Shown here piece after piece: positions 3,490-64,000 of a stretch of DNA of 64,000 bases. Under the pieces are notes generated by a model. It ran no database searches. It saw only the letters and a program-made list of their open reading frames with translations, and was not told the DNA's origin. Origin of the DNA: an uncultured Spirochaetia bacterium (lineage in GTDB: Bacteria; Oederibacteriota; PGYV01; CAYGHG01); assembly GCA_964349515.1 (NCBI GenBank), contig CAYGHG010000001.1, positions 2,528 through 66,527 on the forward strand, read 5' to 3'. Within the stretch, counting starts at the first letter, position 1; every line of letters begins with the position of its first letter. A program made the translations under genes and the position numbers.

Positions 3490-4122
3490 TTATTTGGAAT
3501 ACAACTCAACTATGAGCTGTTCCTGTATCGGCAGAGCTATATCGGTCCTGACAGGGTCGTTTTTTATCGTGCATTCTTTCTTGTCAAAATTAATTTCCAT
3601 CCACGTAGGAACTGTTTTCTTTTTCTGTGCGTCAGCCATAGCCTTCTTTACAGATTCAAGATTCATCCCTTTTTCATTGACAGTTATAACCTCTCCGGGC
3701 CTGACCTGATATGAAGGGATTGTCACTTTTTTTCCCTTTACAATCACCAGCCCGTGATTTACAAGCTGCCTCGCAACCCTTCTGGAAACCGCAAAACCGG
3801 CCTTATACACAGTGTTATCAAGCCTTTTTTCAAGAATTTTAAGGAGGTTTTCACCGGTTTCACCGCTGCGCCTGTTTGCCTCTTCATAATACTTCCTGAA
3901 CTGCTTCTCGAAAACACCATATATCCTCTTTACCTTCTGTTTTTCCCTGAGCTGTTTTCCGTATTCTGATATTTTTCTTCTCTGGTTCTCGTGATGCTGC
4001 CCGGGAATATAAGGCCTTCTTGAAAAACCGCATTTATCCGTAAGACATCTGTCTCCTTTTAAAAAGAGCTTGATGCCTTCTCTCCTGCACAACCTGCATA
4101 ATGCCTTAGTGTATCTTGCCAA
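3490..4122 (-). CDS. rpsD: 30S ribosomal protein S4 (zinc-binding N-terminal CxxC..CxxxxC variant)
   Basis: [16 protein letters not shown]...DKCGF followed by the S4 domain. Confidence 0.9.
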
Positions 4123-4148
4123 TGTAAATCTCCTCCTTGATTATGAGT

Positions 4149-4520
4149 TTATACCCTTCTCTTTTTAGGCGGCCTGCACCCGTTATGGGGTATAGGCGTT
4201 ACATCTTTAATTGAAAGTATTTCAAGCCCTGAGGCCTGAAGCGCCCTTATGGACGGCTCCCTTCCTTCTCCCGGGCCCTTTACAAGAACATCAAGCTTTC
4301 TGACGCCAGCGTCAAACGCCTGCTTGCCCGCTTTCTCAGCCGCAAGCTGCGCGGCAAAAGGCGTAGATTTTCTGGACCCTTTCATTCCCACCATACCGCC
4401 GCTTGCCCAGGCTATTACTTCGCCCTCTTTTGTTGTTATGCTGATAATAGTGTTGTTAAATGTAGACTTAATCCTGGCAACTGCTGTTTCTGGTACTGCT
4501 TTTGCTTTTTTCTTGCTCAA
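4149..4520 (-). CDS. rpsK: 30S ribosomal protein S11
   Basis: 123 aa. Conserved S11 C-terminus (...[10 protein letters not shown]). Confidence 0.9.
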
Positions 4521-4576
4521 GTAAAAATACCTCCTTCAAATTATTAAATCCTGTATTTCACCCTATAGGGGTTGTT

Positions 4577-4957
4577 TTATACTATGCCGCCCTTTTTCGC
4601 GCCGACAGTTCTTCTGGGGCCTTTGCGGGTTCTTGCATTTGTTCTGGTCCTCTGACCTCTCACAGGCAGCCCCTTACGGTGCCTCAAACCCCTGTAACAG
4701 CCGATGTCCATAAGCCTCTTTATATTCTGCTGTACTTCTTTTCTCAGGTCGCCTTCCACTTTCAGCCCTTTTTTTAGAAGAGTTTCCTGGATTCTGTAAA
4801 CTTCGTCTTCTGTCAGGTTCTGAACCCTCGTGTCAGGGTTTACCTTCGCATTGCTGAGAATCTCTTTGGAAAGAGAATCACCCACGCCGTAAACATACGT
4901 TAGGGCAATTTCAATTCTTTTGTTCTTTGGTAAATCAACTCCGACTATACGTGCCAA
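4577..4957 (-). CDS. rpsM: 30S ribosomal protein S13
   Basis: [26 protein letters not shown]... matches S13. Confidence 0.9.
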
Positions 4958-4969
4958 TGTTAAGCCTCC

Positions 4970-5083
4970 TTATCCCTGTCTCTGTTTGTGCTTGGGATTA
5001 TCGCATATTACCCTTACTTTGCCTTTTCTCTTTATAACCTTGCATTTCTCACATACCTTTTTTACAGAAGCTCTTACTTTCAT
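4970..5083 (-). CDS. rpmJ: 50S ribosomal protein L36 (zinc-binding form)
   Basis: Hand translation gives [37 protein letters not shown] (37 aa) with GGAGG 7 nt upstream. Below the ORF-track size cutoff. Confidence 0.85.
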
Positions 5084-5368: not shown

Positions 5369-6118
5369 TTACAGACTCAAAATTCTGGGCCCGTTTTCGG
5401 TTATTGCTATTGTATGTTCAAAATGAGCCGATAAACCTCCGTCTGCCGAAACAACAGTCCACTCGTCTCCCTGAACTATAACTTCAAAGCCTTTCTCGTT
5501 AACCATCGGCTCAATCGCCAGAACCATTCCCGGCTTAAGATCTATTCCGGTGCCTTCTTTACCGAAGTTAGGCACCAGAGGGTCTTCGTGCAGGTTTCGT
5601 CCAATACCGTGCCCCACGAAATCCCTAACTACTGAAAAACCATAGTCTTCCGCCCTGCGTTGGACCGCGGCGGAAATATCATAAAGCTTTTTTCCGGCCC
5701 TTGCGTTTTCTATGCCGTCCGCGAGCGCATGTTTCGTAGCCTCCATTAGTTTTGAGGCAACAAGGCTGACCGCACCTACCGGAACCGTTATAGCCGCATC
5801 ACCGTAAAAACCTCCGCACTCTATTCCGAAGTCTATGCTCACTATATCACCTTCTTTGAGAAGCCTTTTCTTTGAAGGTATGCCGTGAACAACCTCGCAA
5901 TTTACCGAAGCGCAGATAGCTGCGGGATATCCTCTGTAACCGAGAAAAGCCGGCCTGGCCTTATGCAAAGCCGCAATTTTTCTCGCTTCAGCGTCAAGCT
6001 CCAGTGTTGAAATACCCGGTTTTATCATCTCTTTAAGCCTGTTAAGAACTTCAGCAACTATTTTACAGCTTTTTTCGATTCTATTTATTTCATCCTTGCT
6101 TTTTAATTCTATCATCAA
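5369..6118 (-). CDS. map: Type I methionine aminopeptidase
   Basis: 249 aa with MetAP-I metal-binding motifs. Confidence 0.85.
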   Translation of the reverse strand: MMIELKSKDEINRIEKSCKIVAEVLNRLKEMIKPGISTLELDAEARKIAALHKARPAFLGYRGYPAAICASVNCEVVHGIPSKKRLLKEGDIVSIDFGIECGGFYGDAAITVPVGAVSLVASKLMEATKHALADGIENARAGKKLYDISAAVQRRAEDYGFSVVRDFVGHGIGRNLHEDPLVPNFGKEGTGIDLKPGMVLAIEPMVNEKGFEVIVQGDEWTVVSADGGLSAHFEHTIAITENGPRILSL

Positions 6119-10638: not shown

Positions 10639-10824
10639 TTACCAGCTTGACTTTTTAATTCCGGGAATTTCGCCCTTATAAGCGAGCTTCCTGAAACATA
10701 TTCTGCATATACCGAACTTGCGCATATAGGCCCTCGGCCTGCCGCACAGATTACACCTGTTTTTCTGCCTTACTTTAAACTTGGCCTTCTTTCTGGCCTT
10801 GTTAATCATTGCTGTTGTAGCCAC
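10639..10824 (-). CDS. rpsZ: 30S ribosomal protein S14 type Z (zinc-binding)
   Basis: 61 aa with CNLCGRP...CRIC. Confidence 0.9.
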
Positions 10825-10856
10825 TTAAATATCCTCCTTGGTTTTATCGCCTGTTG

Positions 10857-12408: not shown

Positions 12409-12617
12409 TTTACCCGGGCCTCCTTGGCAGCGCCTGTTTTCTGCTTCAGAATAGTGTGAAGCCTCGCAATATCCTTGCGCATAACCCTTATCTGTCCTGT
12501 TTTTTCAAGCTGTTTTGTATGAAGTTTTACGTTCAGCTTGAACAGATTTGCGCTCAACTCTTTTATTTTTCTCTGTATTTCATCGGGATTCATATCCCTT
12601 ATTTCCTGGGGTTTCAT
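12405..12617 (-). CDS. rpmC: 50S ribosomal protein L29
   Basis: 70 aa, helical L29. Confidence 0.85.
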
Positions 12618-17173: not shown

Positions 17174-18381
17174 TATTATTCTAATATCTCGGAAATAACT
17201 CCGGAGCCTACTGTCCTTCCGCCTTCGCGGATTGCGAACCTTAATTCTTTTTCTATGGCTATCGGCATTATCAGCTCTATTTCCATGGTTATGTTGTCGC
17301 CGGGCATTACCATCTCAACTCCCGCCGGCATCTTTATCGAGCCGGTTACGTCTGTTGTCCTGAAATAAAACTGCGGCCTGTAGTTGTTAAAGAACGGTGT
17401 GTGCCTTCCGCCCTCTTCTTTTGTCAGTACGTACACACGCCCCATAAACTTCTTATGCGGCTTTATCGAGCCGGGTTTTGCCACTACCTGCCCTCTCATG
17501 ACCGCGTCCTTGTCGATTCCCCTAAGCAGCAGCCCTACGTTGTCTCCCGCCTGCCCTTCGTCCAGCAGTTTCCTGAACATCTCAACACCGGTTACCACAG
17601 CCTTCTGCGTGTCCTTTAATCCTATTATCTCCACTTCCTCGTTTACCTTTACTTTGCCTCTTTCTATCCTTCCCGTTACCACTGTCCCGCGCCCGGTTAT
17701 TGAGAATACGTCTTCTACGGCAAGCGAGAAAGGTTTGTCTATCTCCCTCTTAGGCTCCGGAACGAAATCGTCTATCGCCTTTACAAGCTCCACTATCGAA
17801 TCCCCGCCCGGTCCGCCCGGGTCCTGCAGCCCTTTTAATGCCGAGCCTCTTATAACCGGTGTTTTGTCTCCGGGAAAATCATATTTCTTCAGCAGGTCCC
17901 TTACCTCTTCCTCTACAAGATCCACCATCTCTTTGTCATCCACCATGTCTACCTTATTTAAAAATACCACTATGTGCGGTACGCCTACCTGCCTCGCAAG
18001 CAGTATGTGCTCCCTCGTCTGCGGCATCGGCCCGTCTACTGCCGATACTACCAGTATCGCGCCGTCCATCTGCGCCGCTCCGGTTATCATGTTCTTTACA
18101 TAATCGGCGTGCCCGGGGCAGTCTACATGCGCATAATGCCTCTTGTCCGAAGAGTATTCCACATGCGATGTCGCTATTGTCAATATTTTTGTCGCGTCGC
18201 GCCTTCCCTGTGATTCTGACGCCTTTGCCACCTCATCGTACGGTACATATGTCGCAAGCCCTTTTGCCGCCATTACATTCGTAAGCGCAGCAGTCAGCGT
18301 TGTCTTGCCGTGGTCTACGTGCCCTATCGTTCCTACGTTTACGTGCGGCTTTGTCCTGTCAAACTTTTCCTTTGCCATTTT
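17174..18381. repeat. About 1208-bp direct repeat copy A, covering tuf
   Basis: Flank comparison puts the identity start at 17174/32711 and the end at 18381/33918. ORFs in several frames on both strands translate identically in the two copies, implying near-100% nucleotide identity. Confidence 0.85.
17176..18378 (-). CDS. tuf: Elongation factor Tu (copy 1, between fusA and rpsJ)
   Basis: 400 aa with [10 protein letters not shown] and the other G-motifs. The protein is identical to the copy at 32713..33915. Confidence 0.95.
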
Positions 18382-32710: not shown

Positions 32711-33918
32711 TATTATTCTAATATCTCGGAAATAACTCCGGAGCCTACTGTCCTTCCGCCTTCGCGGATTGCGAACCTTAATTCTTTTTCTATGGCTATC
32801 GGCATTATCAGCTCTATTTCCATGGTTATGTTGTCGCCGGGCATTACCATCTCAACTCCCGCCGGCATCTTTATCGAGCCGGTTACGTCTGTTGTCCTGA
32901 AATAAAACTGCGGCCTGTAGTTGTTAAAGAACGGTGTGTGCCTTCCGCCCTCTTCTTTTGTCAGTACGTACACACGCCCCATAAACTTCTTATGCGGCTT
33001 TATCGAGCCGGGTTTTGCCACTACCTGCCCTCTCATGACCGCGTCCTTGTCGATTCCCCTAAGCAGCAGCCCTACGTTGTCTCCCGCCTGCCCTTCGTCC
33101 AGCAGTTTCCTGAACATCTCAACACCGGTTACCACAGCCTTCTGCGTGTCCTTTAATCCTATTATCTCCACTTCCTCGTTTACCTTTACTTTGCCTCTTT
33201 CTATCCTTCCCGTTACCACTGTCCCGCGCCCGGTTATTGAGAATACGTCTTCTACGGCAAGCGAGAAAGGTTTGTCTATCTCCCTCTTAGGCTCCGGAAC
33301 GAAATCGTCTATCGCCTTTACAAGCTCCACTATCGAATCCCCGCCCGGTCCGCCCGGGTCCTGCAGCCCTTTTAATGCCGAGCCTCTTATAACCGGTGTT
33401 TTGTCTCCGGGAAAATCATATTTCTTCAGCAGGTCCCTTACCTCTTCCTCTACAAGATCCACCATCTCTTTGTCATCCACCATGTCTACCTTATTTAAAA
33501 ATACCACTATGTGCGGTACGCCTACCTGCCTCGCAAGCAGTATGTGCTCCCTCGTCTGCGGCATCGGCCCGTCTACTGCCGATACTACCAGTATCGCGCC
33601 GTCCATCTGCGCCGCTCCGGTTATCATGTTCTTTACATAATCGGCGTGCCCGGGGCAGTCTACATGCGCATAATGCCTCTTGTCCGAAGAGTATTCCACA
33701 TGCGATGTCGCTATTGTCAATATTTTTGTCGCGTCGCGCCTTCCCTGTGATTCTGACGCCTTTGCCACCTCATCGTACGGTACATATGTCGCAAGCCCTT
33801 TTGCCGCCATTACATTCGTAAGCGCAGCAGTCAGCGTTGTCTTGCCGTGGTCTACGTGCCCTATCGTTCCTACGTTTACGTGCGGCTTTGTCCTGTCAAA
33901 CTTTTCCTTTGCCATTTT
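32711..33918. repeat. About 1208-bp direct repeat copy B, covering tuf
   Basis: See copy A. Flanks diverge immediately outside the CDS. Confidence 0.85.
32713..33915 (-). CDS. tuf: Elongation factor Tu (copy 2, in the tRNA-Thr/tuf/rpmG/tRNA-Trp/secE context)
   Basis: 400 aa, 100% identical to copy 1. Confidence 0.95.
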
Positions 33919-48337: not shown

Positions 48338-49188
48338 TACTTTTTACCTTCCCTGTCCCATACCGGAATATACAAGAAACGCACTGTGAGATACAGCCTG
48401 TGCCCGTGGCCGAATAGCACAAGTTCGGCCCGCGTCTGGCCTTTTTCCCAGAAATAGTAAATATTGCTCGGCTTGCCCCTGACAGAGCCCGACTTTACAT
48501 GTTTTATTTTAGCGGAAGCCGGAGCGCCCCGCAGATCGTCTTTTGTAAACATAGGCCTGCCGTAGAGCCGGGTAAATACGTCAAAGAGCCCGATGAACCT
48601 GCCGTACATTATCTCATCAATATTTGGTATCTTCAGTGCCTCGGCCTTAAAAACCTCTGACGGCCCGAACTCAAATTTTACGGCATAAAGCCTGCCCTCA
48701 TACATGCCGAGGCTCATAAAGTTGGCGTGGGGCACTTTAATTTTAAACTCACCCTGATTGACCGCGATGGAAGATACAAAGTCCGGGTCGCGGCTGTCGG
48801 CAGAGTATGGGTAAAAGAGCCTTATCTGCCCGGCATTCATTCCCCAGCCCAGCCCCATAAGGCTGAACGAGGCGTCTGTAACTGAAGCAAAAGCAAGCTC
48901 ATCAGCCTGAGTGTAAATCTGCGAATATTTTTTGACAGCCTCAGCCTTTGACACCGACTTGAAATATGACATCGCGGCAAACCCGGCTGCGCCGAGCACT
49001 GCCAGTACCCCGCCGAGTATTATCCAGAACCTTATAACCGCTTTTCTGTGGCGTTCGTCATACTTAACCGCCGCCTTTTTTTCCGTTTTCGGCAGCGGCG
49101 AGCCGCACGAAGCACAAAAGCTCGCGCTTTCCCTGTTATGTACTCCGCACGCTTTGCAAGTTTTCACCTGAACCTCCGGGCGATTCAA
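48337..49188 (-). CDS. Membrane protein with N-terminal cytoplasmic zinc ribbon and extracytoplasmic domain of unknown function
   Basis: CKACG...CASCG, then one TM, then an about 200-aa domain. Overlaps the stop of the giant gene. Confidence 0.4.
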   Translation of the reverse strand: MNRPEVQVKTCKACGVHNRESASFCASCGSPLPKTEKKAAVKYDERHRKAVIRFWIILGGVLAVLGAAGFAAMSYFKSVSKAEAVKKYSQIYTQADELAFASVTDASFSLMGLGWGMNAGQIRLFYPYSADSRDPDFVSSIAVNQGEFKIKVPHANFMSLGMYEGRLYAVKFEFGPSEVFKAEALKIPNIDEIMYGRFIGLFDVFTRLYGRPMFTKDDLRGAPASAKIKHVKSGSVRGKPSNIYYFWEKGQTRAELVLFGHGHRLYLTVRFLYIPVWDREGKK

Positions 49189-52100
49189 TTTTTCTTTTCT
49201 TTTTTTATCTTTCTTATTCCGTACCTTGTAATTTTCTGGGAAACTTCCCCCTTTGCGGTGACCTGGTAGAGGTATATGCCGTCCTCTGTACCGGAAGCGC
49301 TCCAGAAGGAGTTGTTATAGGCCTTTCCTTTTTTCTTTTCATCAATAGTCGCCACTATTTTACCCGATTCGTTATACACCTTTATGCTTACAGCGCTGTT
49401 CTCGGGGATAAAGTAGTTGAATATTATCCTGTCATTTGACTCGTCATACATCGCGAATATCTCAGAAGATATGTTGAGGACTTTCTCGGGCTCGTCCGAG
49501 CGCAGCTCTATGTCTTCTATTATCTGCGGCGGCAGGTTCTTTCCGAGCACTTTTACCTTTATCTTTGCGACAGGCAGGTTGTCTATTATGTAATTGCCGT
49601 CCTTGTCGGAAATACCCACGCCGAGGGATATACCGTCGTCTTTAAGCACCTCCACGGTGGCGCCCGGAAGCGGCATTATGCCGTTTGACTGGGTAACCGC
49701 ACCTTTGAGCGATACTTTTGTCTTGACCCTCGCCCTGAAGTGCACCGCGGTCTTTCCTATCACGCCCTCCCTGTCGACAGATACTATGTGGAAGTACCAG
49801 ACACCGTCGTTTATTTCAACAGGCCCGGCGTTTGTATCCATTGTCTTGCTGTTTTTGGGCGAAGGGATGGTCTTTTCAAAATTATCAAGCACATAATAAT
49901 AGCCTATGATGTCATTTACATAAGACATCGCCTTCCACTGCATTTTCAGGTTTTTTTCCCTGTACCACTTGTTTTCATCGGGATGTGTCGGCGAGTAAAC
50001 AAGAGGCGGCGGCGGAGTCATTGCGACATTTATCTGGAAATGGGAGGACTCGGCTGATATGTTGCCTGCTGTATCCTTTGCAATAACGTGCAGATACCAC
50101 GTGCCGTCAGGCACATCAACAAACGAGGCCATGGTGCCGCGCGTCCAGCTCGCGGTAGTGATGTCGGGCACGGAATCTTTTATCTGGTTAAAAAGATAAT
50201 AATACCCCTCTATCCCCGCCGGGTCGGGAGGGGTGGTCCAGGAGAACGACGGCGAGTTGTTGTTAAACCAGCGGTTGAAATCCGCGTGCGTGATTGAAGA
50301 TATGACAGGCGGTTTCGGCCTGGTCGTGTCTATGTTAATCTGGAAGTGCGTGGCTTCCTCGGAGATATTTCCCGCTTCGTCCTTTGACACTACATGGAAA
50401 TACCACGTGCCGTCGCCTGTCTGCGGAAATGATATTTCATTGTCAGTGTACCACGTGCCGTTTTTTGCCTCAGGTACGGTGGCGGGTATCTGGTCAAATA
50501 TGTAGTAGTAACCGGTGATTTTAGTTGCGTCCTGCGGGGTCTCCCAGTTTAAGTTTATGTCTTTTGTCGCGTACCATTGCTCCTGCATAGGGTGGGTTGC
50601 CGAGCGGACGACAGGCGGCATCGCATACCTGTCGCAAATCGCGAGCACCTGCTTGTTTCCGCTCTCGCGCTCATTTCCGACTTTGTCAACACCGCGTATG
50701 GTGTAATAGTAAATGATTCCGTCCTCAAGATCCGGCGAAGAGTCGGTAAACCTGGTGTCAGTCACCGCGCCGTCGTCGCATATCTGCATCCCGAGCTGCC
50801 CGGAGACCGACGAGCGGTAAACCCTGAAGTAGTCAAGCCCGCTGACCGAATCTGTGACCTTGTTCCACTCAAGCCCCACCACGCCGTCACGCAAGGGCTT
50901 TGCCGCCACCTGTGTCACCTGCGATGGCGGGGATACGTCTATTGTTACCTTTGCCGAATCCACTTCATAATACTCCGACCAGTTGCCTGCGTTATCGCGC
51001 GCTTTTACGCGGAAGTAGTAGGTGATGCCGTCTTCGCCTTTGAAGACCGCTTTCATTGTTTTGGTCTCTTTGAGCCACGTTTTCCACTTGCCCTTATCGC
51101 CCTCTTTGTATTCAACAAGAAAGCCGTATATGCCGGATTCCCGGTCTTCGCCGTCCCACTCCACTTCAAAAGATTCCGAGTTGACGAATTTTTTAAGCTC
51201 TTTCAGGTGCACGTCAGGCGGGTTTGTTTCAATCTTGAATCTGTAATGGGCCGCTTCCGTGCCTGTGTTTCCGGCTATGTCCTTTAACACCGCGTGAAAA
51301 TACCATTCTCCGTCTTCAAGCGGTTCCGTAATCTTCACCGTACTTTCTTTTGTAAATTTTCCCGTCTTTCTTTCGGGCATGTTATCAGGGGTTTTATCAA
51401 TCTTGTAATAAAAACCCTCCACACCCGAGAACTCATCTGATTTTTCCATGGTGAAAACCGGGCTGCGCTCGCAGTAATACCTGTCGTGGTTGGGGTGTGT
51501 GGGCGAGAAGACCTCGGGCGGGTCGGCCTTTAAATCCACATTGATTGTAAATATTGCCGGCTCTTCGCCGATGTTGCCTGCATTGTCCTCGCTTACGATA
51601 TGAAAGAAGAAAATGCCCTCGGAATCCACCTGTATTTCAGCCTCACGTTTGTCTGTTGTAATCGTCATCTCGGGAAGCAGCTTCATATGCTTCTCGCGCG
51701 AGAAGAGATAGTGGAACTGTTTTATTTTGGAGAGGTCCTGCGGCACGGTCCAGCCGAGCTTTATGACCGGGTTGTTGTACCACTTTGCCTCGTCAGGGTG
51801 CGTCGGCGAGCTGAGCTTCGGCGCCTCAACAGCGGTGTCTATTTTCATCCTGAAGTGCGACGCTTCCCAGCCGGTGTTTCCCGCATTGTCTTTTGAAATT
51901 ATGTGGAAATACCATATGCCGTCTTGCAGCCTCGGCAGCGATACCTGGTTTGACGTCGTCCACTCCGCGGTCTCCCGCGCGGGGACGGTATTGTTTTTCT
52001 GGTCGCAGCAGTAGTAATAACCCTCGACGCCTGACAGATCCTCCGGTGTATCCCAGTGAAGCTCAGGGATGGCGTTGCTGTACCACATTTCTTCGTCGCG

Positions 52101-54731
52101 GTGCGTCTTTGACATGACTTTCGGCGGTTTTGCAGCAGTGTCTATATTGAACCTGTAATGGGAGGCCGCTTTGCCGATGTTGCCTGCCCGGTCTTTTGTG
52201 GTAACGTGTATGAACCAGCCTGCGTCCTTTAAGTCTCCGGAAAATATTGTGTCCTTGTCCGTCCAGGAGCAGGTGTCGTCAGGAACTGATTTTTCATTGT
52301 TGTCAATGGAATAATAATACCCTTCTGTGCCGGATAAATCCTCAGGCTGGCTGATTTTAAACTGCGCTTTTTTTATATTGTACCATTTGTGCGGGTCGGG
52401 GTGGGTTACCGACGATATATTCGGAGGCAGTGCCTGAGTGTCTATGTTAAACCTGTAGTGGGTGGTTTCTTTTGAAATATTGCCCGCGGAGTCTTTTGTC
52501 TTGACGTGCAGATACCATGTGCCGTCTGTTTTCGCGGGCAGTTTTATGTCGCTTGACGCCGTATAAACCCACTCTGATTCGTGGGGCTCTGTATCGGGCT
52601 TTGCATCAACGCAGTAAAAGAACCCCTCCACTCCGGATAGGTCATGGGGCCGCGCAAAATGCGCCTCTGTTTCTTTTTCGTTATACCAGGACTTTTCGTC
52701 AGGGTGCGTCCTGGAGGTCACGACAGGCGGGGAGACCTGCGTGTCTATGTTGAGCCTGAAGTGATAAGCTTTTGTACCGGTGTTGCCCGCCTTGTCCTTT
52801 GAAACTACGTGGAAATATTTTACCCCTTCTTCCAGCGGCGGCGTTTTTATGTGGGTGTCTTCCGTATAAGCGCCTGTTTTTTCATTGGGCACGGTGCCGG
52901 GCACTTCATCTATTACATAGTAATAGCCCTCTATGCCCGAGAGATCCTCCGGCGCCTCCCACTTTAAGACAGGCATATTGTTGTTGTACCATCTGGAGGC
53001 GTCAGGATGAGTCGCGGAAGTGACCTCAGGGGGCATCGCCGCTGTGTCCACTCTGATTGTAAAGTGCGAAACCTCGGGGCTGATGTTGCCGGCCTTGTCC
53101 TCTATGAGGACGTGGCAGTACCACACGCCTTCGTCCAGATTTTTAAGCACCACGCTTTCCTTTACCGTTGCCTGGCATTTCGCAGGGTCAGGCTTTGTCT
53201 CCGGATTTCTGTCCACAAGGTAAAGATAGTTTTTAACATCAGAATGCACGCCCCAAAACACCTCTGCGTCCGCTTTATTGTACCAGCGGTTCTGCTCGGG
53301 GTGTGTCTGCGATGAGAGCACCGGCGTTACCGCCGCAGTGGTGGTGAATTTATAGTTTTCAGCCACCCCGGAAAAACTGCCTATGTCGGAATATGTGAGT
53401 ATCCTGAAACTGTAATCCGTCAGTGACTTGAGGTTGTTGAGGGTTATCCTGTGCTTTGCTGTTTTTAACTCATTTACTATGTTGTTGCCATAGGCCTCGT
53501 CGGTTCCGTATTCAATTATGGTTTTCGCTTCCCTGTCAGTGTCCCAGGTTATTACCGCGCTGTGGGAGGTAATCTCGGAAATTTTAACATTATGCACGCT
53601 CGGCGGCGGGGTGTTGCTGATTGTCGTCCTGAAAATACGCCCCTTTGGAGAGGAACCGAAATAAAGGTATCCGTTGAAAAGGCATATCGCCCTGATGTCC
53701 TCCTCATCGGTCTGAAAAGCGAGCTCCCATTTTTTTCCGTCAAGGCTTTTATATATCCTGCCGTTGTCTCCGCTGCCCACGTATAAGCTGTTGGCAAACG
53801 AGACAAACCTGTAGAAGTTTACATCCTTTTCAGAAAAGAAGTTTTCCACCCAGTTGGTGCCGTCCTCAGTCATAAAAATAAGCCCGCCCGAGGCTTTTGA
53901 GGTGGAGGCGTAGAGCCTGTTTTGAAAAACATAAAAATCATTTATGAAACTCTGGTTTGTGTCAAAAACCTTCTGCCAGTTAACACCGTCAGAGGTGCGG
54001 TATATCATCCCGTTGGGGTAAGTGCCTGCGTAAAGATAATCCCTGAAAAGCCCGAAACAGGCTATCGCGAGTTCAGGGGTGTTGAGCGATACCACCCAGT
54101 GGCTGCCGTTATAGCTGTATACTTTTCCCTCTGTTGAGGTGCCTGCAAAAAGCCTGCCCTTAAAAGCCTCAAGGCAGTGTATCCTCGCCTCACCGCTGTT
54201 AAAAGAGAGGCTCCACTTTTCGCCGTCTATAGTCTCATATATCCCGCCGTTTGCGTTTGTGCCGCTGAAAAGTTTTGTAGTGCCGAGGTCGTTAAAAGTT
54301 TTTAGACAGTAAACCTGCGGAGTATAGTCCCCCAGCCCCTCCTCGCTGAATGATTTCGTCCTGCCTACAGGAGGGTTGAAATATGGGGAAAAAATATTTG
54401 CAATCGAGAGCTGTTCCCACGCGCCCACGTCGCCTGTCGTGCTTCGGATTACGGAATCTTTGTTTGTGCAGGCGTAGAGTCTGCCGTTAAATTCCTGAAA
54501 GTCGTATATGATGGGTGTGGAGGGGCTGTCAAATACCGGTATGAAGGATTCTTTAGGCACATAGCGCAGGTAAAGCGGTATCGCGGCTTTGATATTTTTT
54601 ACAACCTCGCCGGGACTTTTGCCCGAGACCACAAGCCCGGGCATCTCCGTGCACTCGCCTATGAATTTTCCTTCCTGCTCTTTTACGGACACGTCAAAAC
54701 TGACCGTAATCTCCCTTTGTTTTTCCTTCAT
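49185..54731 (-). CDS. Giant (1848 aa) multi-domain cell-surface-type protein: HicB-like N-terminus, beta-propeller, FN3, ten copies of an about 100-aa THPD/WYFH repeat, CarboxypepD_reg-like domain and T9SS-type C-terminal domain
   Basis: Repeats start at aa 476, 574, 675, 776, 876, 977, 1078, 1379, 1481 and 1582. Consensus is THPDxxxWYNxxxPxFxWxxPxDLSGxEGYYYxxD...DGxWYFHVxSKDxAGNxxxxAxHYRFNIDTxxPP. The C-terminus ...VSIKVYNESGKIVATI...GIYLYQVTAKGE... matches the Por/T9SS sorting-domain pattern. Confidence 0.7.
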   Translation of the reverse strand: MKEKQREITVSFDVSVKEQEGKFIGECTEMPGLVVSGKSPGEVVKNIKAAIPLYLRYVPKESFIPVFDSPSTPIIYDFQEFNGRLYACTNKDSVIRSTTGDVGAWEQLSIANIFSPYFNPPVGRTKSFSEEGLGDYTPQVYCLKTFNDLGTTKLFSGTNANGGIYETIDGEKWSLSFNSGEARIHCLEAFKGRLFAGTSTEGKVYSYNGSHWVVSLNTPELAIACFGLFRDYLYAGTYPNGMIYRTSDGVNWQKVFDTNQSFINDFYVFQNRLYASTSKASGGLIFMTEDGTNWVENFFSEKDVNFYRFVSFANSLYVGSGDNGRIYKSLDGKKWELAFQTDEEDIRAICLFNGYLYFGSSPKGRIFRTTISNTPPPSVHNVKISEITSHSAVITWDTDREAKTIIEYGTDEAYGNNIVNELKTAKHRITLNNLKSLTDYSFRILTYSDIGSFSGVAENYKFTTTAAVTPVLSSQTHPEQNRWYNKADAEVFWGVHSDVKNYLYLVDRNPETKPDPAKCQATVKESVVLKNLDEGVWYCHVLIEDKAGNISPEVSHFTIRVDTAAMPPEVTSATHPDASRWYNNNMPVLKWEAPEDLSGIEGYYYVIDEVPGTVPNEKTGAYTEDTHIKTPPLEEGVKYFHVVSKDKAGNTGTKAYHFRLNIDTQVSPPVVTSRTHPDEKSWYNEKETEAHFARPHDLSGVEGFFYCVDAKPDTEPHESEWVYTASSDIKLPAKTDGTWYLHVKTKDSAGNISKETTHYRFNIDTQALPPNISSVTHPDPHKWYNIKKAQFKISQPEDLSGTEGYYYSIDNNEKSVPDDTCSWTDKDTIFSGDLKDAGWFIHVTTKDRAGNIGKAASHYRFNIDTAAKPPKVMSKTHRDEEMWYSNAIPELHWDTPEDLSGVEGYYYCCDQKNNTVPARETAEWTTSNQVSLPRLQDGIWYFHIISKDNAGNTGWEASHFRMKIDTAVEAPKLSSPTHPDEAKWYNNPVIKLGWTVPQDLSKIKQFHYLFSREKHMKLLPEMTITTDKREAEIQVDSEGIFFFHIVSEDNAGNIGEEPAIFTINVDLKADPPEVFSPTHPNHDRYYCERSPVFTMEKSDEFSGVEGFYYKIDKTPDNMPERKTGKFTKESTVKITEPLEDGEWYFHAVLKDIAGNTGTEAAHYRFKIETNPPDVHLKELKKFVNSESFEVEWDGEDRESGIYGFLVEYKEGDKGKWKTWLKETKTMKAVFKGEDGITYYFRVKARDNAGNWSEYYEVDSAKVTIDVSPPSQVTQVAAKPLRDGVVGLEWNKVTDSVSGLDYFRVYRSSVSGQLGMQICDDGAVTDTRFTDSSPDLEDGIIYYYTIRGVDKVGNERESGNKQVLAICDRYAMPPVVRSATHPMQEQWYATKDINLNWETPQDATKITGYYYIFDQIPATVPEAKNGTWYTDNEISFPQTGDGTWYFHVVSKDEAGNISEEATHFQINIDTTRPKPPVISSITHADFNRWFNNNSPSFSWTTPPDPAGIEGYYYLFNQIKDSVPDITTASWTRGTMASFVDVPDGTWYLHVIAKDTAGNISAESSHFQINVAMTPPPPLVYSPTHPDENKWYREKNLKMQWKAMSYVNDIIGYYYVLDNFEKTIPSPKNSKTMDTNAGPVEINDGVWYFHIVSVDREGVIGKTAVHFRARVKTKVSLKGAVTQSNGIMPLPGATVEVLKDDGISLGVGISDKDGNYIIDNLPVAKIKVKVLGKNLPPQIIEDIELRSDEPEKVLNISSEIFAMYDESNDRIIFNYFIPENSAVSIKVYNESGKIVATIDEKKKGKAYNNSFWSASGTEDGIYLYQVTAKGEVSQKITRYGIRKIKKEKKN

Positions 54732-61133: not shown

Positions 61134-61634
61134 CTACATCGGTTTATTTCTGTTTTGTAATGGTTTTCCTAAAATGTTCTTCATGGGGCATTTCTCATTT
61201 TCGCAGCCGCGGCATACAAACAATAATACTTCACCCGCCGCCAACCCTACCGCCGCCCAGTAAAAAATCAGCAGGGGAATATCTTTCAAGAGCCATAGCT
61301 GGGGGAAAACCACAGCTGCTGCTGCGATTGCAAGTGTTAAAACCACATCCATTGCAGTATAGTAGGATTTATCCGGATGCGGCCGGATAAATTTTGAGAT
61401 AGGGCCGAGTATGGCATGCATACATTTATCCCTGCATGGACATTTCTCGCAGTACACAGCCGGTATAACAATAAAAAAAACCGCTATCACAGCGGCATAT
61501 ATAACTCCAAACACCATTGAATCCCTGAACACCACATACCCGCCGGCCAAAAACGCCGCAAATAACATCACTACAGCAATCAGTCCGTGAATTCGCGCCA
61601 TCACCGTCCTCCTATTTAGTCTTACCGCCTGCAT
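61134..61634 (-). CDS. Hypothetical 4-TM membrane protein with two Cys clusters (CEKCPCRDKC, CRGCENEKC)
   Basis: Hydrophobic segments alternate with Cys-rich loops. No recognisable family. Confidence 0.4.
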   Translation of the reverse strand: MQAVRLNRRTVMARIHGLIAVVMLFAAFLAGGYVVFRDSMVFGVIYAAVIAVFFIVIPAVYCEKCPCRDKCMHAILGPISKFIRPHPDKSYYTAMDVVLTLAIAAAAVVFPQLWLLKDIPLLIFYWAAVGLAAGEVLLFVCRGCENEKCPMKNILGKPLQNRNKPM

Positions 61635-61758
61635 TTATCATATTTCAGGTCATTGTCTGAGCCTCTGCCTGCTTTACTGGCAGGTATACACAGCATGCGC
61701 AGTTACATGCGAACCCGGGAATGTCTGAATTAACGCTGCAAACAGATTCGGCAGAGTA

Positions 61759-61853
61759 CAAAAAAACAGGAGGGTCACAGACCCTCCTCTACTATTACAA
61801 CAACACGTTTTTTCCGGTGTAAAAGGCGGGTTTCAAACCCGCCTCTTTTTTAG
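61759..61853. repeat. Solo copy of a double-hairpin repeat element (terminator-like) downstream of the Gly-rich lipoprotein gene
   Basis: acaaaaaaaCAGGAGGGTCacaGACCCTCCtctac...GGCGGGTTTcAAACCCGCCtctttttt, same element as the units at 63536..63835. Confidence 0.6.
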
Positions 61854-61858
61854 CTGTC

Positions 61859-63406
61859 TCACGGTATCAGATATGTGTTCTGGCTCAAACCGTTTTGTCC
61901 AACATTCCCGCCCGCGCCTCCGTTACCCGCTGTTCCCAAAACATATGTTACCCCGCTTAATACAGGTGCCGTTGTGCTGTAAACTATGTTTATCACAGGG
62001 CCGCCTCCTCCTCCTCCGCCCGAACCGCCGTTGCCGCCTTTTCCTCCGTTGCCGCCCGCGCCTCCTCTGCCTGCTGTTCCCTGGCTTGCCGAGTATGCTC
62101 CCGCGCTGCCGCCTGCTCCGCCGTTGCCTCCGCTGCCGCCTGTTCCTCCGTTACCGCCTATGCCTCCGTTGCCTGTTGCCAACTGAGTGTTATTTATAAC
62201 AACCCCCGTGCAGTCAAAAAGCATCAGCGCGACAGAGGCGCCTCCGCCCGTGCCTGCCGTACCGGCCGAGCCTGCCTGTCCGCCACTGCCGCCTCCTCCT
62301 CCGGAAGTACCATACCAGTCACAAAAACCGCTGACACCGCCGCCGGCGCCGCCTCCCCCTCCGCCTCCATAGCCGTGATCACCGTCAGCGCCGCTTTCAC
62401 CGCCTGATGCCGTGTAACCCGACAAAGTAAATACTCCAGCCGATAATCCTGATGCTCCATTTGTGCCGTTTGCACCTGCATTACCGGGCTGTCCTGGCTG
62501 ACCGTTATTTGCAGTTAATCCACCAGCGCCACCCGCACCACCACTGCCCGGTGATACGGCTGAAACTCCGGAAGCACCTGTGCTCCCGCCAAGCCCCGGG
62601 TATCCGCCTGCGCCGCCGTTCCTTCCCCAGCTGCATACTCCGGCAGTACCTCCGGCCGGCCTGCTGCAGGCACCGCATATCCCGTCGTCATTTTCGCATC
62701 CCGGGTTTCCACTGCCGCCGATAGTACCTGCTGTACCTTCCATTCCGTTCATACCATTAGCACCATTTCCGCCATTGCGCGAGGTAAAAGAACATGATTC
62801 TATTATTATATTATCGCAGTTTTTCAGAAACACAGCGACCGACGCACCGCCCTGTACGGTATTGTTGGCGCTGTTAACGCTTAACAATGCAAGGGTTACA
62901 TCATCTGCATTGTCCCCCGTCACAGCAGTGACGCCGCCTGATATTATGCATTCATTCGCCGTGCCGCGCGCCCATGAGTTATGCGCGGCATAGCCGCCGT
63001 AAACAGAAACCCCTGCAGCCAGCATTATGCTTTCATTATAAGTGCCGATAGAAACCAGCACACTCGGTTTGCCCGAAAGTACGGCAGCATCTATTGCAGC
63101 CTGAATAGTTTTTTTAGGGTTATCCAATGACCCGTCGGCGGCATCATCACCTGAAATCACATCTACAAATATGGACATTGACGCATCTCCGTCAATACCG
63201 TCCGAGTTTGTGTCGGTAAATGAAGGATCCGGCAGGTCCACAGGAGTACCGGACACCATAGGAGTCGTTGTGACGGTGGCAGTGGCAGTTACAGTGGCGG
63301 TTACAGTCTGCGTTACGCCGGGTAACACTTCAGAAGGTGTTTTTATTTTAGTACAGGCAAAAAACAAAACAGAAACCACGATAATTGAAACGAGTGTTTT
63401 TTTCAA
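61859..63406 (-). CDS. Glycine-rich (GGxGGxGG repeats) lipoprotein with N-terminal DUF1565-like right-handed beta-helix domain
   Basis: Signal peptide with lipobox-like FFAC. TVTATVTATATV linker. DUF1565-like DGSLDNPKKTIQAAIDAA...GTYNE. Then about 300 aa that are more than 50% Gly. Confidence 0.55.
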   Translation of the reverse strand: MKKTLVSIIVVSVLFFACTKIKTPSEVLPGVTQTVTATVTATATVTTTPMVSGTPVDLPDPSFTDTNSDGIDGDASMSIFVDVISGDDAADGSLDNPKKTIQAAIDAAVLSGKPSVLVSIGTYNESIMLAAGVSVYGGYAAHNSWARGTANECIISGGVTAVTGDNADDVTLALLSVNSANNTVQGGASVAVFLKNCDNIIIESCSFTSRNGGNGANGMNGMEGTAGTIGGSGNPGCENDDGICGACSRPAGGTAGVCSWGRNGGAGGYPGLGGSTGASGVSAVSPGSGGAGGAGGLTANNGQPGQPGNAGANGTNGASGLSAGVFTLSGYTASGGESGADGDHGYGGGGGGGAGGGVSGFCDWYGTSGGGGGSGGQAGSAGTAGTGGGASVALMLFDCTGVVINNTQLATGNGGIGGNGGTGGSGGNGGAGGSAGAYSASQGTAGRGGAGGNGGKGGNGGSGGGGGGGPVINIVYSTTAPVLSGVTYVLGTAGNGGAGGNVGQNGLSQNTYLIP

Positions 63407-63535
63407 AATTTTCTCCCTGTTTGATTTTTTTTAATTATATCAGAATACGGGGGTTGAAGCAATGAAGCATAAAACTGAGTGTAAAGGCGCGAAGTGTAAG
63501 GGTGTAAAGGTTCAAAAACAAAAACGAACGCAGAA

Positions 63536-63835
63536 CAAAAAAACAGGAGGGCCACAGACCCTCCTCTACGATTACAACAACACGTTTTTTTCCGGCGTAG
63601 AGGCGGGTTTCAAACCCGCCTTGTTTTTAACGTCGTTAATTACAAAAAAACAGGAGGGTCACAGACCCTCCTCTACGATTACAACAACACGTTTTTTTCC
63701 GGCGTAGAGGCGGGTTTCAAACCCGCCTTGTTTTTAACGTCGTTAATTACAAAAAAACAGGAGGGTCACAGACCCTCCTCTACGTTTACAACAACAACAT
63801 GTTATTTCCGGCGCAGCCTTGTTTTTAACTATTTG
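63536..63835. repeat. Tandem array of three 108-109-bp units (third degenerate), each with two GC-rich hairpins flanked by A/T runs; bidirectional terminator-like modules
   Basis: Units start at about 63536, 63645 and 63753. Hairpin 1 is GGAGGGTC-aca-GACCCTCC preceded by A7. Hairpin 2 is GGCGGGTTT-c-AAACCCGCC followed by ttgttttt. An inner inverted repeat CCTCTACG/CGTAGAGG is also present. Confidence 0.65.
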
Positions 63836-64000
63836 TTCCCCAAAAAATACCTTCCGCCTAACAGCCTGCAGTCTTCTATGAAAGACTTGATGTTTCCCGG
63901 CACTGTGTCAGCAGCGTAGCGGCTCACCCACTGGTGTTTCCCGTTTATCACCACGCTTATGTGGACTGACGGTTTGTCCATCTCATCTTCAGCAAAAGCC
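63829..64000 (-). CDS. Partial CDS, C-terminal 56 codons of a gene whose 5' part lies beyond the window end; product unknown
   Basis: Open minus-strand frame ...AFAEDEMDKPSVHISVVINGKHQWVSRYAADTVPGNIKSFIEDCRLLGGRYFLGNK ending in TAG at 63829..63831, immediately followed by the tandem terminator-like array. Confidence 0.3.
   Translation of the reverse strand, partial: AFAEDEMDKPSVHISVVINGKHQWVSRYAADTVPGNIKSFIEDCRLLGGRYFLGNK

Follow-up and report, generated by a model that had tools for sequence, protein, structure and literature searches.

Paired GTAG-footed hairpins at two gene ends of a Goldbacteria contig, probably REP heterodimers in a BIME-like array

We analysed a stretch of 64,000 nucleotides (hereafter the window) of contig CAYGHG010000001.1 from the assembly GCA_964349515.1, positions 2,528 to 66,527 of the forward strand. 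The RpoB protein encoded in the window is 74-80% identical to the RpoB of metagenome-assembled genomes (MAGs) of Candidatus Goldbacteria/Goldiibacteriota. The subject of this study is a short repeat which is reiterated between a 228-aa open reading frame (ORF) and the gene for a Gly-rich lipoprotein, and of which a solo copy is present behind the lipoprotein gene. A full unit of this repeat contains two hairpins, named here REP-A (read on the minus strand) and REP-B (read on the plus strand) after the repetitive extragenic palindromes (REPs) to which they are similar. All genes around the array are encoded on the minus strand and, in the direction of transcription, the order is the stop codon of the 228-aa ORF, the array, a module of ACAC type, a likely promoter, the lipoprotein gene and the solo unit. 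The features in this order are as follows.

63829..64000, minus strand: 3' end of the 228-aa ORF, stop codon 63829-63831; the ORF runs off the window and is complete at 2488-3174 of L119, a contig of the same organism
63749..about 63828, minus strand: unit 3, truncated, directly 3' of the stop of the 228-aa gene; REP-A 63759-63779, foot 63783-63780 and T7 intact
63642..63748, minus strand: unit 2; REP-A 63652-63672, foot 63676-63673 (minus strand); REP-B foot 63704-63707, hairpin 63708-63728
63535..63641, minus strand: unit 1, complete, closest to the lipoprotein promoter; REP-A hairpin 63545-63565, foot GTAG 63569-63566 (minus strand), then T7 on the minus strand; REP-B hairpin 63601-63621, foot GTAG 63597-63600 (plus strand)
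63479..63520, minus strand: ACAC module, three direct CTTTACAC repeats, between the array and the lipoprotein promoter
63434..63462, minus strand: likely lipoprotein promoter, TTGCTT (63462-63457), 17 nt, TGaTATAAT (-10 at 63439-63434); a sister species keeps the promoter
61859..63406, minus strand: Gly-rich lipoprotein gene, 515 aa, preceded by the array and followed by the solo unit
61758..61856, minus strand: solo unit, just past the TGA stop (61859-61861) of the lipoprotein gene; REP-B hairpin 61824-61844 begins 15 nt past the stop, its foot degenerated to GTAA (61819-61822); REP-A 61768-61788, foot 61792-61789 and T7 intact

No Pfam family could be assigned to the 228-aa ORF or to the Gly-rich lipoprotein. 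Since the stop codon of the 228-aa ORF is located at 63829-63831, the array begins at the stop codon, and since the promoter is downstream of the array, the array separates the end of one gene from the promoter of the next. The promoter was called by eye and is below the 4-of-6 rule that the promoter tool applies to the -35 hexamer. A preliminary description of this DNA had placed three units of 108 bp between an unnamed upstream gene and the promoter side of the lipoprotein gene. This position is correct, with the 228-aa ORF as the upstream gene; however, the third unit is incomplete and the period is 107 bp.

Tandem Repeats Finder locates the array at 63535-63813 with a period of 107, 2.6 copies, 96% matches and a score of 512. 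The tandem repeat is therefore real, but unit 3 lacks hairpin B, and the only complete units are unit 1 and unit 2, which are 99% identical and one base apart. The solo copy described earlier behind the lipoprotein stop is likewise present. The 19-mer core of hairpin A (GGAGGGTCACAGACCCTCC) has four plus-strand sites, at 61769, 63546 (with one mismatch), 63653 and 63760, as compared to 0 in the shuffled window, and the core of hairpin B (GGCGGGTTTCAAACCCGCC) has three, at 61825, 63602 and 63709, as compared to 0.01. Read from the sequence, the hairpins of the array follow each other in the order A, B, A, B, A with their centres 56 and 51 bp apart. The REP-A stem of unit 1 contains GGAGGGCC (T>C), which results in a C.A mismatch on the plus strand and a G.U wobble in the minus-strand RNA; this is the only stem substitution and it is found in all assemblies of the locus. 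Unit 3 is the most diverged of the units, with the REP-B hairpin deleted and TGCG as the remnant of its foot.

The number of units differs between assemblies. In three independent cases (L119, L120 and L130; megahit, k141), assemblies made from short reads of this organism contain 1.6 units as compared to 2.6 in the window, unit 2 being missing, and the counterpart of window 63535-63828 is L119 3175-3361. Four Logan contigs (L126, L127, L128 and L131) terminate within the unit. The difference between 1.6 and 2.6 units may be a true copy-number variation or an assembly collapse of the 107-bp repeat at k=141.

REP-A reads GTAG-A-GGAGGGTC-TGT-GACCCTCC-T on the minus strand and REP-B reads GTAG-A-GGCGGGTT-TCA-AACCCGCC-T on the plus strand. 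Both hairpins have a stem of 9 bp and a loop of 3 nt (-15.8 kcal/mol for REP-A and -16.3 kcal/mol for REP-B), and the tetranucleotide GTAG is present directly at the hairpin foot in six of the seven hairpins of the window, the exception being REP-B of the solo unit (GTAA). REPs are defined as short, GC-rich, imperfect palindromes (stem of 6-13 bp, short loop) that have a GT[AG]G left unpaired at their foot (PMC2817692; PMC3733652). No other GC-rich GTAG-footed hairpins are present in the 64-kb window apart from one weak, G.U-containing match within an ORF, and all copies are extragenic, each placed after a stop codon and ahead of the following gene. The two GTAG feet of a unit face each other over a spacer of 27 nt. 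These feet, one per hairpin, are what had been taken for an inner inverted repeat (CCTCTACG...CGTAGAGG), which is not a structural stem, and because of this assignment the REP class was missed in the preliminary description. The second half of this repeat is absent in unit 3, and in the solo unit the repeat is broken by GTAAAAGG in place of GTAGAGG. Each 107-bp unit therefore corresponds to two oppositely oriented GTAG-tagged REPs, a 'TT heterodimer' in the nomenclature of Di Nocera, and their head-to-tail reiteration corresponds to a cluster like the bacterial interspersed mosaic elements (BIMEs).

Both the minimum-free-energy and the centroid fold of the unit consist of two independent hairpins, and the arms of REP-A and REP-B are identical at 13 of 19 core positions and different at 6 of 19. 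A REPIN, in which two inverted REPs pair into a single long hairpin and replicate as a unit, was ruled out by this fold and by the differences between the arms. Among the earlier proposals, that of a small repeat family or a family of MITEs (miniature inverted-repeat transposable elements) came closest. The repeat family stands, in the GTAG-tagged REP/BIME class, but a MITE was ruled out, as there are no terminal inverted repeats and no target-site duplication or duplicated flank around the solo or array copies, and no inverted symmetry is present beyond that between the two REPs. A CRISPR array, rejected already in the preliminary description, was ruled out by the contiguous units, the inter-hairpin segments that are themselves repeated and the absence of unique spacers, and an integron attC site by the absence of an R/L box palindrome.

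The same hairpins are present in other genomes. When one genome of each GTDB species was scanned for the REP-A core (GGAGGGNCACAGACCCTCC), at least 118 loci were identified. Among the matches listed, 94 of 128 continue directly with CCTAC, the reverse complement of the GTAGG foot, and 88 of 128 have CG before REP-A, and the host MAGs are labelled as Muiribacteriota, many Chloroflexota/Anaerolineae, Aminicenantes, Oscillospiraceae, Peptococcaceae, Ignavibacteriales and others. The base composition of the flanks varies widely among the REP-A matches and these are therefore not derived from one contaminant. One Muiribacteriota MAG contains at least 33 REP-A copies in at least 23 loci. REP-B with the GTAGG foot is also found in those loci, and other perfect hairpins of 9 bp and 3 nt in the listed loci are preceded by GTAG in 35 of 94 strand-reads, where about 0.4 are expected. 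Both stem-loops of the window are identical to these cross-phylum REPs, except that the basal G-C pair is replaced by A-T on both sides. The A-spacer-B doublet is present in the Chloroflexota genome PMV_1.47, in an Aminicenantes MAG and in the metagenome contig L121, with a different spacer of similar length. L121 was the one match of a metagenome scan for this doublet, and a window-specific 26-mer gave 0 matches in a scanned metagenome set that was without this organism. No match to the unit or to the footed REP-A was found in viral contigs, plasmids and phages.

Some of these hairpins are located beside genes similar to RAYTs, the tyrosine transposases associated with REPs. A Muiribacteriota locus (L015) encodes a RAYT-like ORF of 174 aa (3808-4332, minus strand) with one REP-A 34 nt upstream and a second one in frame past the HUH motif (..NHIHAIF..REGHRPSPT..). 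An ORF with 40% identity to it is present in an Aminicenantes locus (L095, about 4497-5015, minus strand), where REP-B-like hairpins are located on both sides of the ORF and another one lies in frame at the same place as in L015 (peptide VGAGLQPAR); this ORF also contains an in-frame TGA. The L015 ORF matches the Pfam family Y1_Tnp (3.4e-7), and the best model for both is the NCBIfam REP_Tyr_transpos, with scores that remain below its curated cut-off of 80 (1e-15 and 57.8 bits for L015, 4e-14 and 52.6 bits for L095). Both proteins carry the NH[IV]H, WQ and YIxxNP motifs. Subclass 2.4 of the TnpA_REP transposases is characterized by NH[IFV]H, WQ and YIxNNP motifs, by long canonical REPs with a GC bottom and by a patchy presence across many phyla, and REP insertions within its genes preserve the reading frame (PMC6006769). 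The in-frame REPs of L015 and L095 and the spread over phyla are thus already published traits of this subclass.

Other arrangements of REP-A are visible in the Muiribacteriota MAG CSMAG_1642. Three of its loci (L035 5788-5886, L059 2614-2712 and L076 3107-3206) contain inverted REP-A homodimers with the GTAG outside and 80 nt apart, and their longer conserved flanks are REPIN-like. Several REP-A copies of this AT-rich genome are embedded in long frames that run for 300-525 codons without a stop, suggestive of in-frame insertions within genes.

On the minus strand each unit ends in the REP-A hairpin followed by GUUUUUUUG (U7), and on the plus strand the REP-B hairpin is followed by UGUUUUU. 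The earlier reading of the unit as an intrinsic terminator on both strands holds at the level of the sequence, hairpin A with T7 on the minus strand and hairpin B with TGTTTTT on the plus strand being of about -16 kcal/mol each. Two independent scans identified four terminator-like sites of the units on the minus strand and three on the plus strand, located 0-100 nt past stop codons, and the unit hairpins are among the very few strong terminator-like sites of the whole window. By strict criteria the sole other high-scoring terminator is a bidirectional terminator-like palindrome at 947-978 with a stem of 14 bp (AAAAGGCGCGGGCA...TGCCCGCGCCTTTT).

Taken together, we consider it probable from the sequence that the units are REP heterodimers which were spread by a RAYT, form a BIME-like array and were likely co-opted as terminator or 3'-end protector. 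The terminator geometry also raises the question whether these could be ordinary Rho-independent terminators that were duplicated locally and have no mobile-element ancestry, the likeness of the array and the solo unit being due to a segmental duplication of the intergenic region. Besides the hairpin and T-run on both strands, such an origin would be in line with the confinement of the window copies to gene ends within a 2-kb stretch, and with the repeated segment of the sister species, which runs past the doublet into the shared ACAC module as expected from an intergenic duplication. However, it leaves the GTAG foot on both hairpins unexplained, and it does not account for stem-loops that are identical to GTAGG-footed REPs in MAGs labelled as many phyla, some of them beside RAYT-like genes. 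Convergence on two exact 19-mers plus the foot is not credible, as window shuffles contain 0 to 0.01 matches. We therefore regard this origin as very unlikely.

Comparison to the sister species gives an estimate of the age of the units. Its ortholog of the 228-aa ORF (P0125) is 84% identical and the gene order is the same on its contigs L124 and L125. One unit is present after the 228-aa gene, with one stem mismatch in REP-B and the foot CTGCG, and one unit with both feet intact is present after the lipoprotein gene. A third, degenerate copy consisting of REP-B and the spacer only lies 3' of another gene (L124 5721-5779), and a remnant is found in the window organism just outside the window. 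As both sites are occupied in the sister, by one unit each, they predate the species split and the array grew in the window lineage; its size is 1 unit in the sister, 1.6 in the short-read assemblies and 2.6 in the window. The single sister unit matches unit 3 of the window and the CTGCG change is common to both. Because of this shared foot change unit 3 is probably the original one, and units 1 and 2, together with a linker of 11 nt, were probably gained in the window lineage. All six copies of the two species agree fully in REP-A, in its GTAG foot and in T7.

Two further observations concern the surroundings of the units. The synteny with the sister stops exactly 3' of the solo unit (window 61635-61757 as compared to L124 12530-12921), where the sister has a serpin gene and the window a 166-aa membrane-protein ORF, the REP unit being the rearrangement boundary. 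About 3 kb past the window end, a GTAG-footed hairpin of another type (GTAGGGGTGCGAAAGCACGCCC; L119 47-72) is nested in a larger terminator-like hairpin and adjoins a degenerate remnant of the doublet spacer (CTCTACACCGGAAAAGAATG; L119 about 117-140).

Identity at four-fold degenerate sites between the species is 53% (38/72) in the 228-aa gene and 77% (230/299) in the lipoprotein gene, or 72% pooled. The solo unit is identical at 96 of 104 positions (92%; binomial P = 3e-7 against the pooled value) and unit 1 at 84 of 100 positions to the first sister unit (P = 0.004), and the lipoprotein promoter at 85 of 95. The identity of 92% in the solo unit as compared to about 72% at four-fold sites suggests constraint.

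A conservation of the whole unit, spacer included, that exceeds the four-fold sites would also suit a small RNA (sRNA) of the minus strand, or a regulatory RNA derived from the 3' untranslated region (3'UTR), which would be amplified in tandem, as are multi-copy sRNA genes, and would consist of the REP-B stem-loop at its 5' side, a single-stranded A/U-rich seed (CCGGAAAAAAACGUGUUGUUGUAAU) and the REP-A terminator with its U-tail. This layout is like that of Hfq-type sRNAs, and the sole stem substitution is a G.U pair on the minus strand. However, there is no promoter-like site within or between the units, where a terminator and the hairpin that follows are no more than 30 bp apart, and the A-B doublets of other phyla have a spacer of another sequence and length. 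The best Rfam score is 26 bits as compared to gathering scores of 47-56. In a search of the window against Rfam 15 two tRNAs alone pass the gathering threshold, and the best matches of a permissive search of 61600-64000 have 26 bits as compared to thresholds of 47-130. With no Rfam match near the gathering score and no promoter-like site inside the units, the structured small RNA suggested earlier is not borne out, and we give an RNA of this kind little credence.

The units might, by analogy to the E. coli BIMEs, act on the level of DNA as protein-binding or topological elements (gyrase, integration host factor (IHF), Pol I), their terminator-like appearance being incidental. This would be compatible with REP heterodimers spread by a transposase, and the regular spacing and alternating orientation of the REPs is the BIME layout (PMC2817692); the conserved spacer would fit as well. 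However, no IHF-type site was recognisable in the spacer in a check by eye. The added T-runs and the position right after stop codons favour a role at the RNA level over one at the DNA level, and so the DNA-level role appears improbable as the principal one.

The proposed history of the REP heterodimers is as follows. A RAYT/TnpA_REP tyrosine (HUH-Y1) transposase which reads the GTAG foot would have spread the doublet in the form of single-stranded hairpins, and the array would have expanded by local duplication or by insertion beside an existing unit. The doublet would have gained, or been selected with, the A-run and the T-run that flank it on opposite sides. REP-A with U7 could then act as an intrinsic terminator for the lipoprotein gene and, three times over, for the 228-aa gene, where the serial units would provide redundant termination ahead of the next promoter, and REP-B with UGUUUUU would be the equivalent terminator for antisense transcription. 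The hairpins probably also shield the upstream mRNA 3' ends from exonucleases, as do the E. coli REP clusters. A functional analogue is the REP325 array of E. coli, which is reported to be a partial terminator and mRNA stabiliser and to produce a ladder of truncated transcripts (bioRxiv 10.64898/2026.03.23.713779). To judge from the sequence, the present role of the doublet is likely that of a co-opted intrinsic terminator or 3'-end protector.

Several points weigh against this interpretation. The T-runs are no part of the family in other phyla. A tblastn search with a RAYT-like protein found no RAYT-like gene in the window, a profile of the six units (nhmmer) found no further copy in the window, and the about 75 kb that were examined contain two loci and one degenerate remnant just beyond the window. 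The insertion sites are orthologous and old, and nothing points to a recent movement of the units. In three copies REP-B no longer has an intact GTAG foot, which reads GTAA in the solo unit and GCAG in the first sister copy and is deleted in unit 3. The entire unit is conserved, the spacer included, for which a plain terminator has no obvious need. The four-fold identities of the two genes used as reference are far apart (53% and 77%), and the comparison of 84/100 is weakly significant.

It is conceivable, and in our view unlikely, that the Goldbacteria REP heterodimer has been domesticated as a module, consisting of REP-B, a single-stranded spacer and the REP-A terminator, that is kept for a function beyond termination, as a 3'UTR-derived RNA or a protein-binding insulator, and that would form together with the CTTTACAC module a reusable cassette before secreted-protein genes. 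Units derived from the doublet co-occur with the ACAC module at three intergenic regions of the sister, and the conservation of the spacer above that of four-fold sites would fit such a module as well.

Clusters of the ACAC type (TTTGAACCTTTACAC..TACACTT..TTTACACT) are located immediately 5' of the promoters of several genes for secreted proteins or lipoproteins, in the window at 63479-63520 (minus strand) and about 56814 (plus strand) and in the sister contig L124 at 10790-10830, 5790-5830, 12545-12575 and about 18718. These clusters are kept in both Goldbacteria species; they follow REP-derived units at three intergenic regions and are also present without a REP. The ACAC module is probably a separate regulatory element, a binding site of a regulator, outside the REP.

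Gene callers predict spurious ORFs over the array, one of 81 aa (window 63462-63707, plus strand) and one of 116 aa (L119 3084-3434, minus strand) (P0001, P0002), whose peptides EGHRPSS and AGFKPAL are translated REP hairpins. A protein search with the translated repeat, for such ORFs over other copies, matched this locus alone.

Two other kinds of repeats are present elsewhere in the window. The EF-Tu gene occurs in two copies (17176-18378 and 32713-33915, minus strand), the 3' ends of which are 100% identical over at least 300 nt; one copy is part of the str operon and the other adjoins tRNA-Thr, rpmG, secE and nusG. Within an ORF of 1848 aa (49185-54731, minus strand), seven or more diverged repeats, each about 300 nt long and 61-76% identical, are located at 50020-53132 and are probably tandem Ig-like domains.

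For annotation, the units should be labelled as REP/BIME-type repeats and not as genes, and they break short-read and Logan contigs at this locus. The candidate phylum Goldbacteria would be added to the hosts of GTAG-tagged REPs. The locus presents a clean case of a REP doublet with acquired U-tails that two species retain at orthologous gene ends, and it lends support to a co-option of REPs as 3'-end signals. No new mechanism is opened by it, and a specialist would not be surprised.

Close to the units among known systems are the GTAG-tagged REPs (Di Nocera et al. 2013, PMC3733652; Nunvar et al. 2010, PMC2817692). The units share with them the short GC-rich palindrome with an unpaired GTAG at one foot, the G.T pairs in stems and the extragenic position 3' of ORFs between unidirectional genes. 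The 'TT' heterodimers with the GTAG inside and a spacer of 20-100 bp are likewise known, as is the tandem reiteration of dimers together with some flanking DNA. The differences are the low copy number within the DNA seen here (two loci; for a whole host genome tens to hundreds of dispersed copies are usual) and the basal stem pair, which is A-T here and G-C in the cross-phylum consensus, the change being compensatory. Moreover, the A- and T-runs that flank the doublet here make a canonical intrinsic terminator. Goldbacteria are not among the phyla listed as hosts of GTAG-tagged REPs in PMC3733652. With the REPs of subclass 2.4 (Quentin et al. 2018, PMC6006769) the hairpins share the 5' GT[AG]G foot, the long stem, the GC-rich bottom and the patchy presence over phyla, and the same two hairpins flank RAYT-like genes and sit in frame inside them; however, this link to a transposase is seen in other phyla only.

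The BIME-2 elements of E. coli (for example REP325, with Y/Z2 REPs) also contain two REP types of alternating orientation with regular spacing and variable tandem number, and are placed in the 3'UTR or between codirectional genes. Their stems are longer and bulged, they have no U-tail and termination is partly Rho-dependent, whereas short perfect hairpins with U7 are found here. The cognate transposase is of subclass 2.2 in E. coli and of the 2.4 type for the hairpins described here. In REPINs (Bertels and Rainey 2011, PMC3116915) two inverted REPs and a short spacer similarly make up one repeated unit, but here the arms are unlike and two separate hairpins are predicted instead of one long hairpin. 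Bidirectional intrinsic terminators share the position between genes and a GC-rich hairpin with a T-run for each strand. In the classical form a single hairpin lies between an A-run and a T-run, whereas the units have two hairpins, one per strand, and both of them carry the recognition foot of a transposase.

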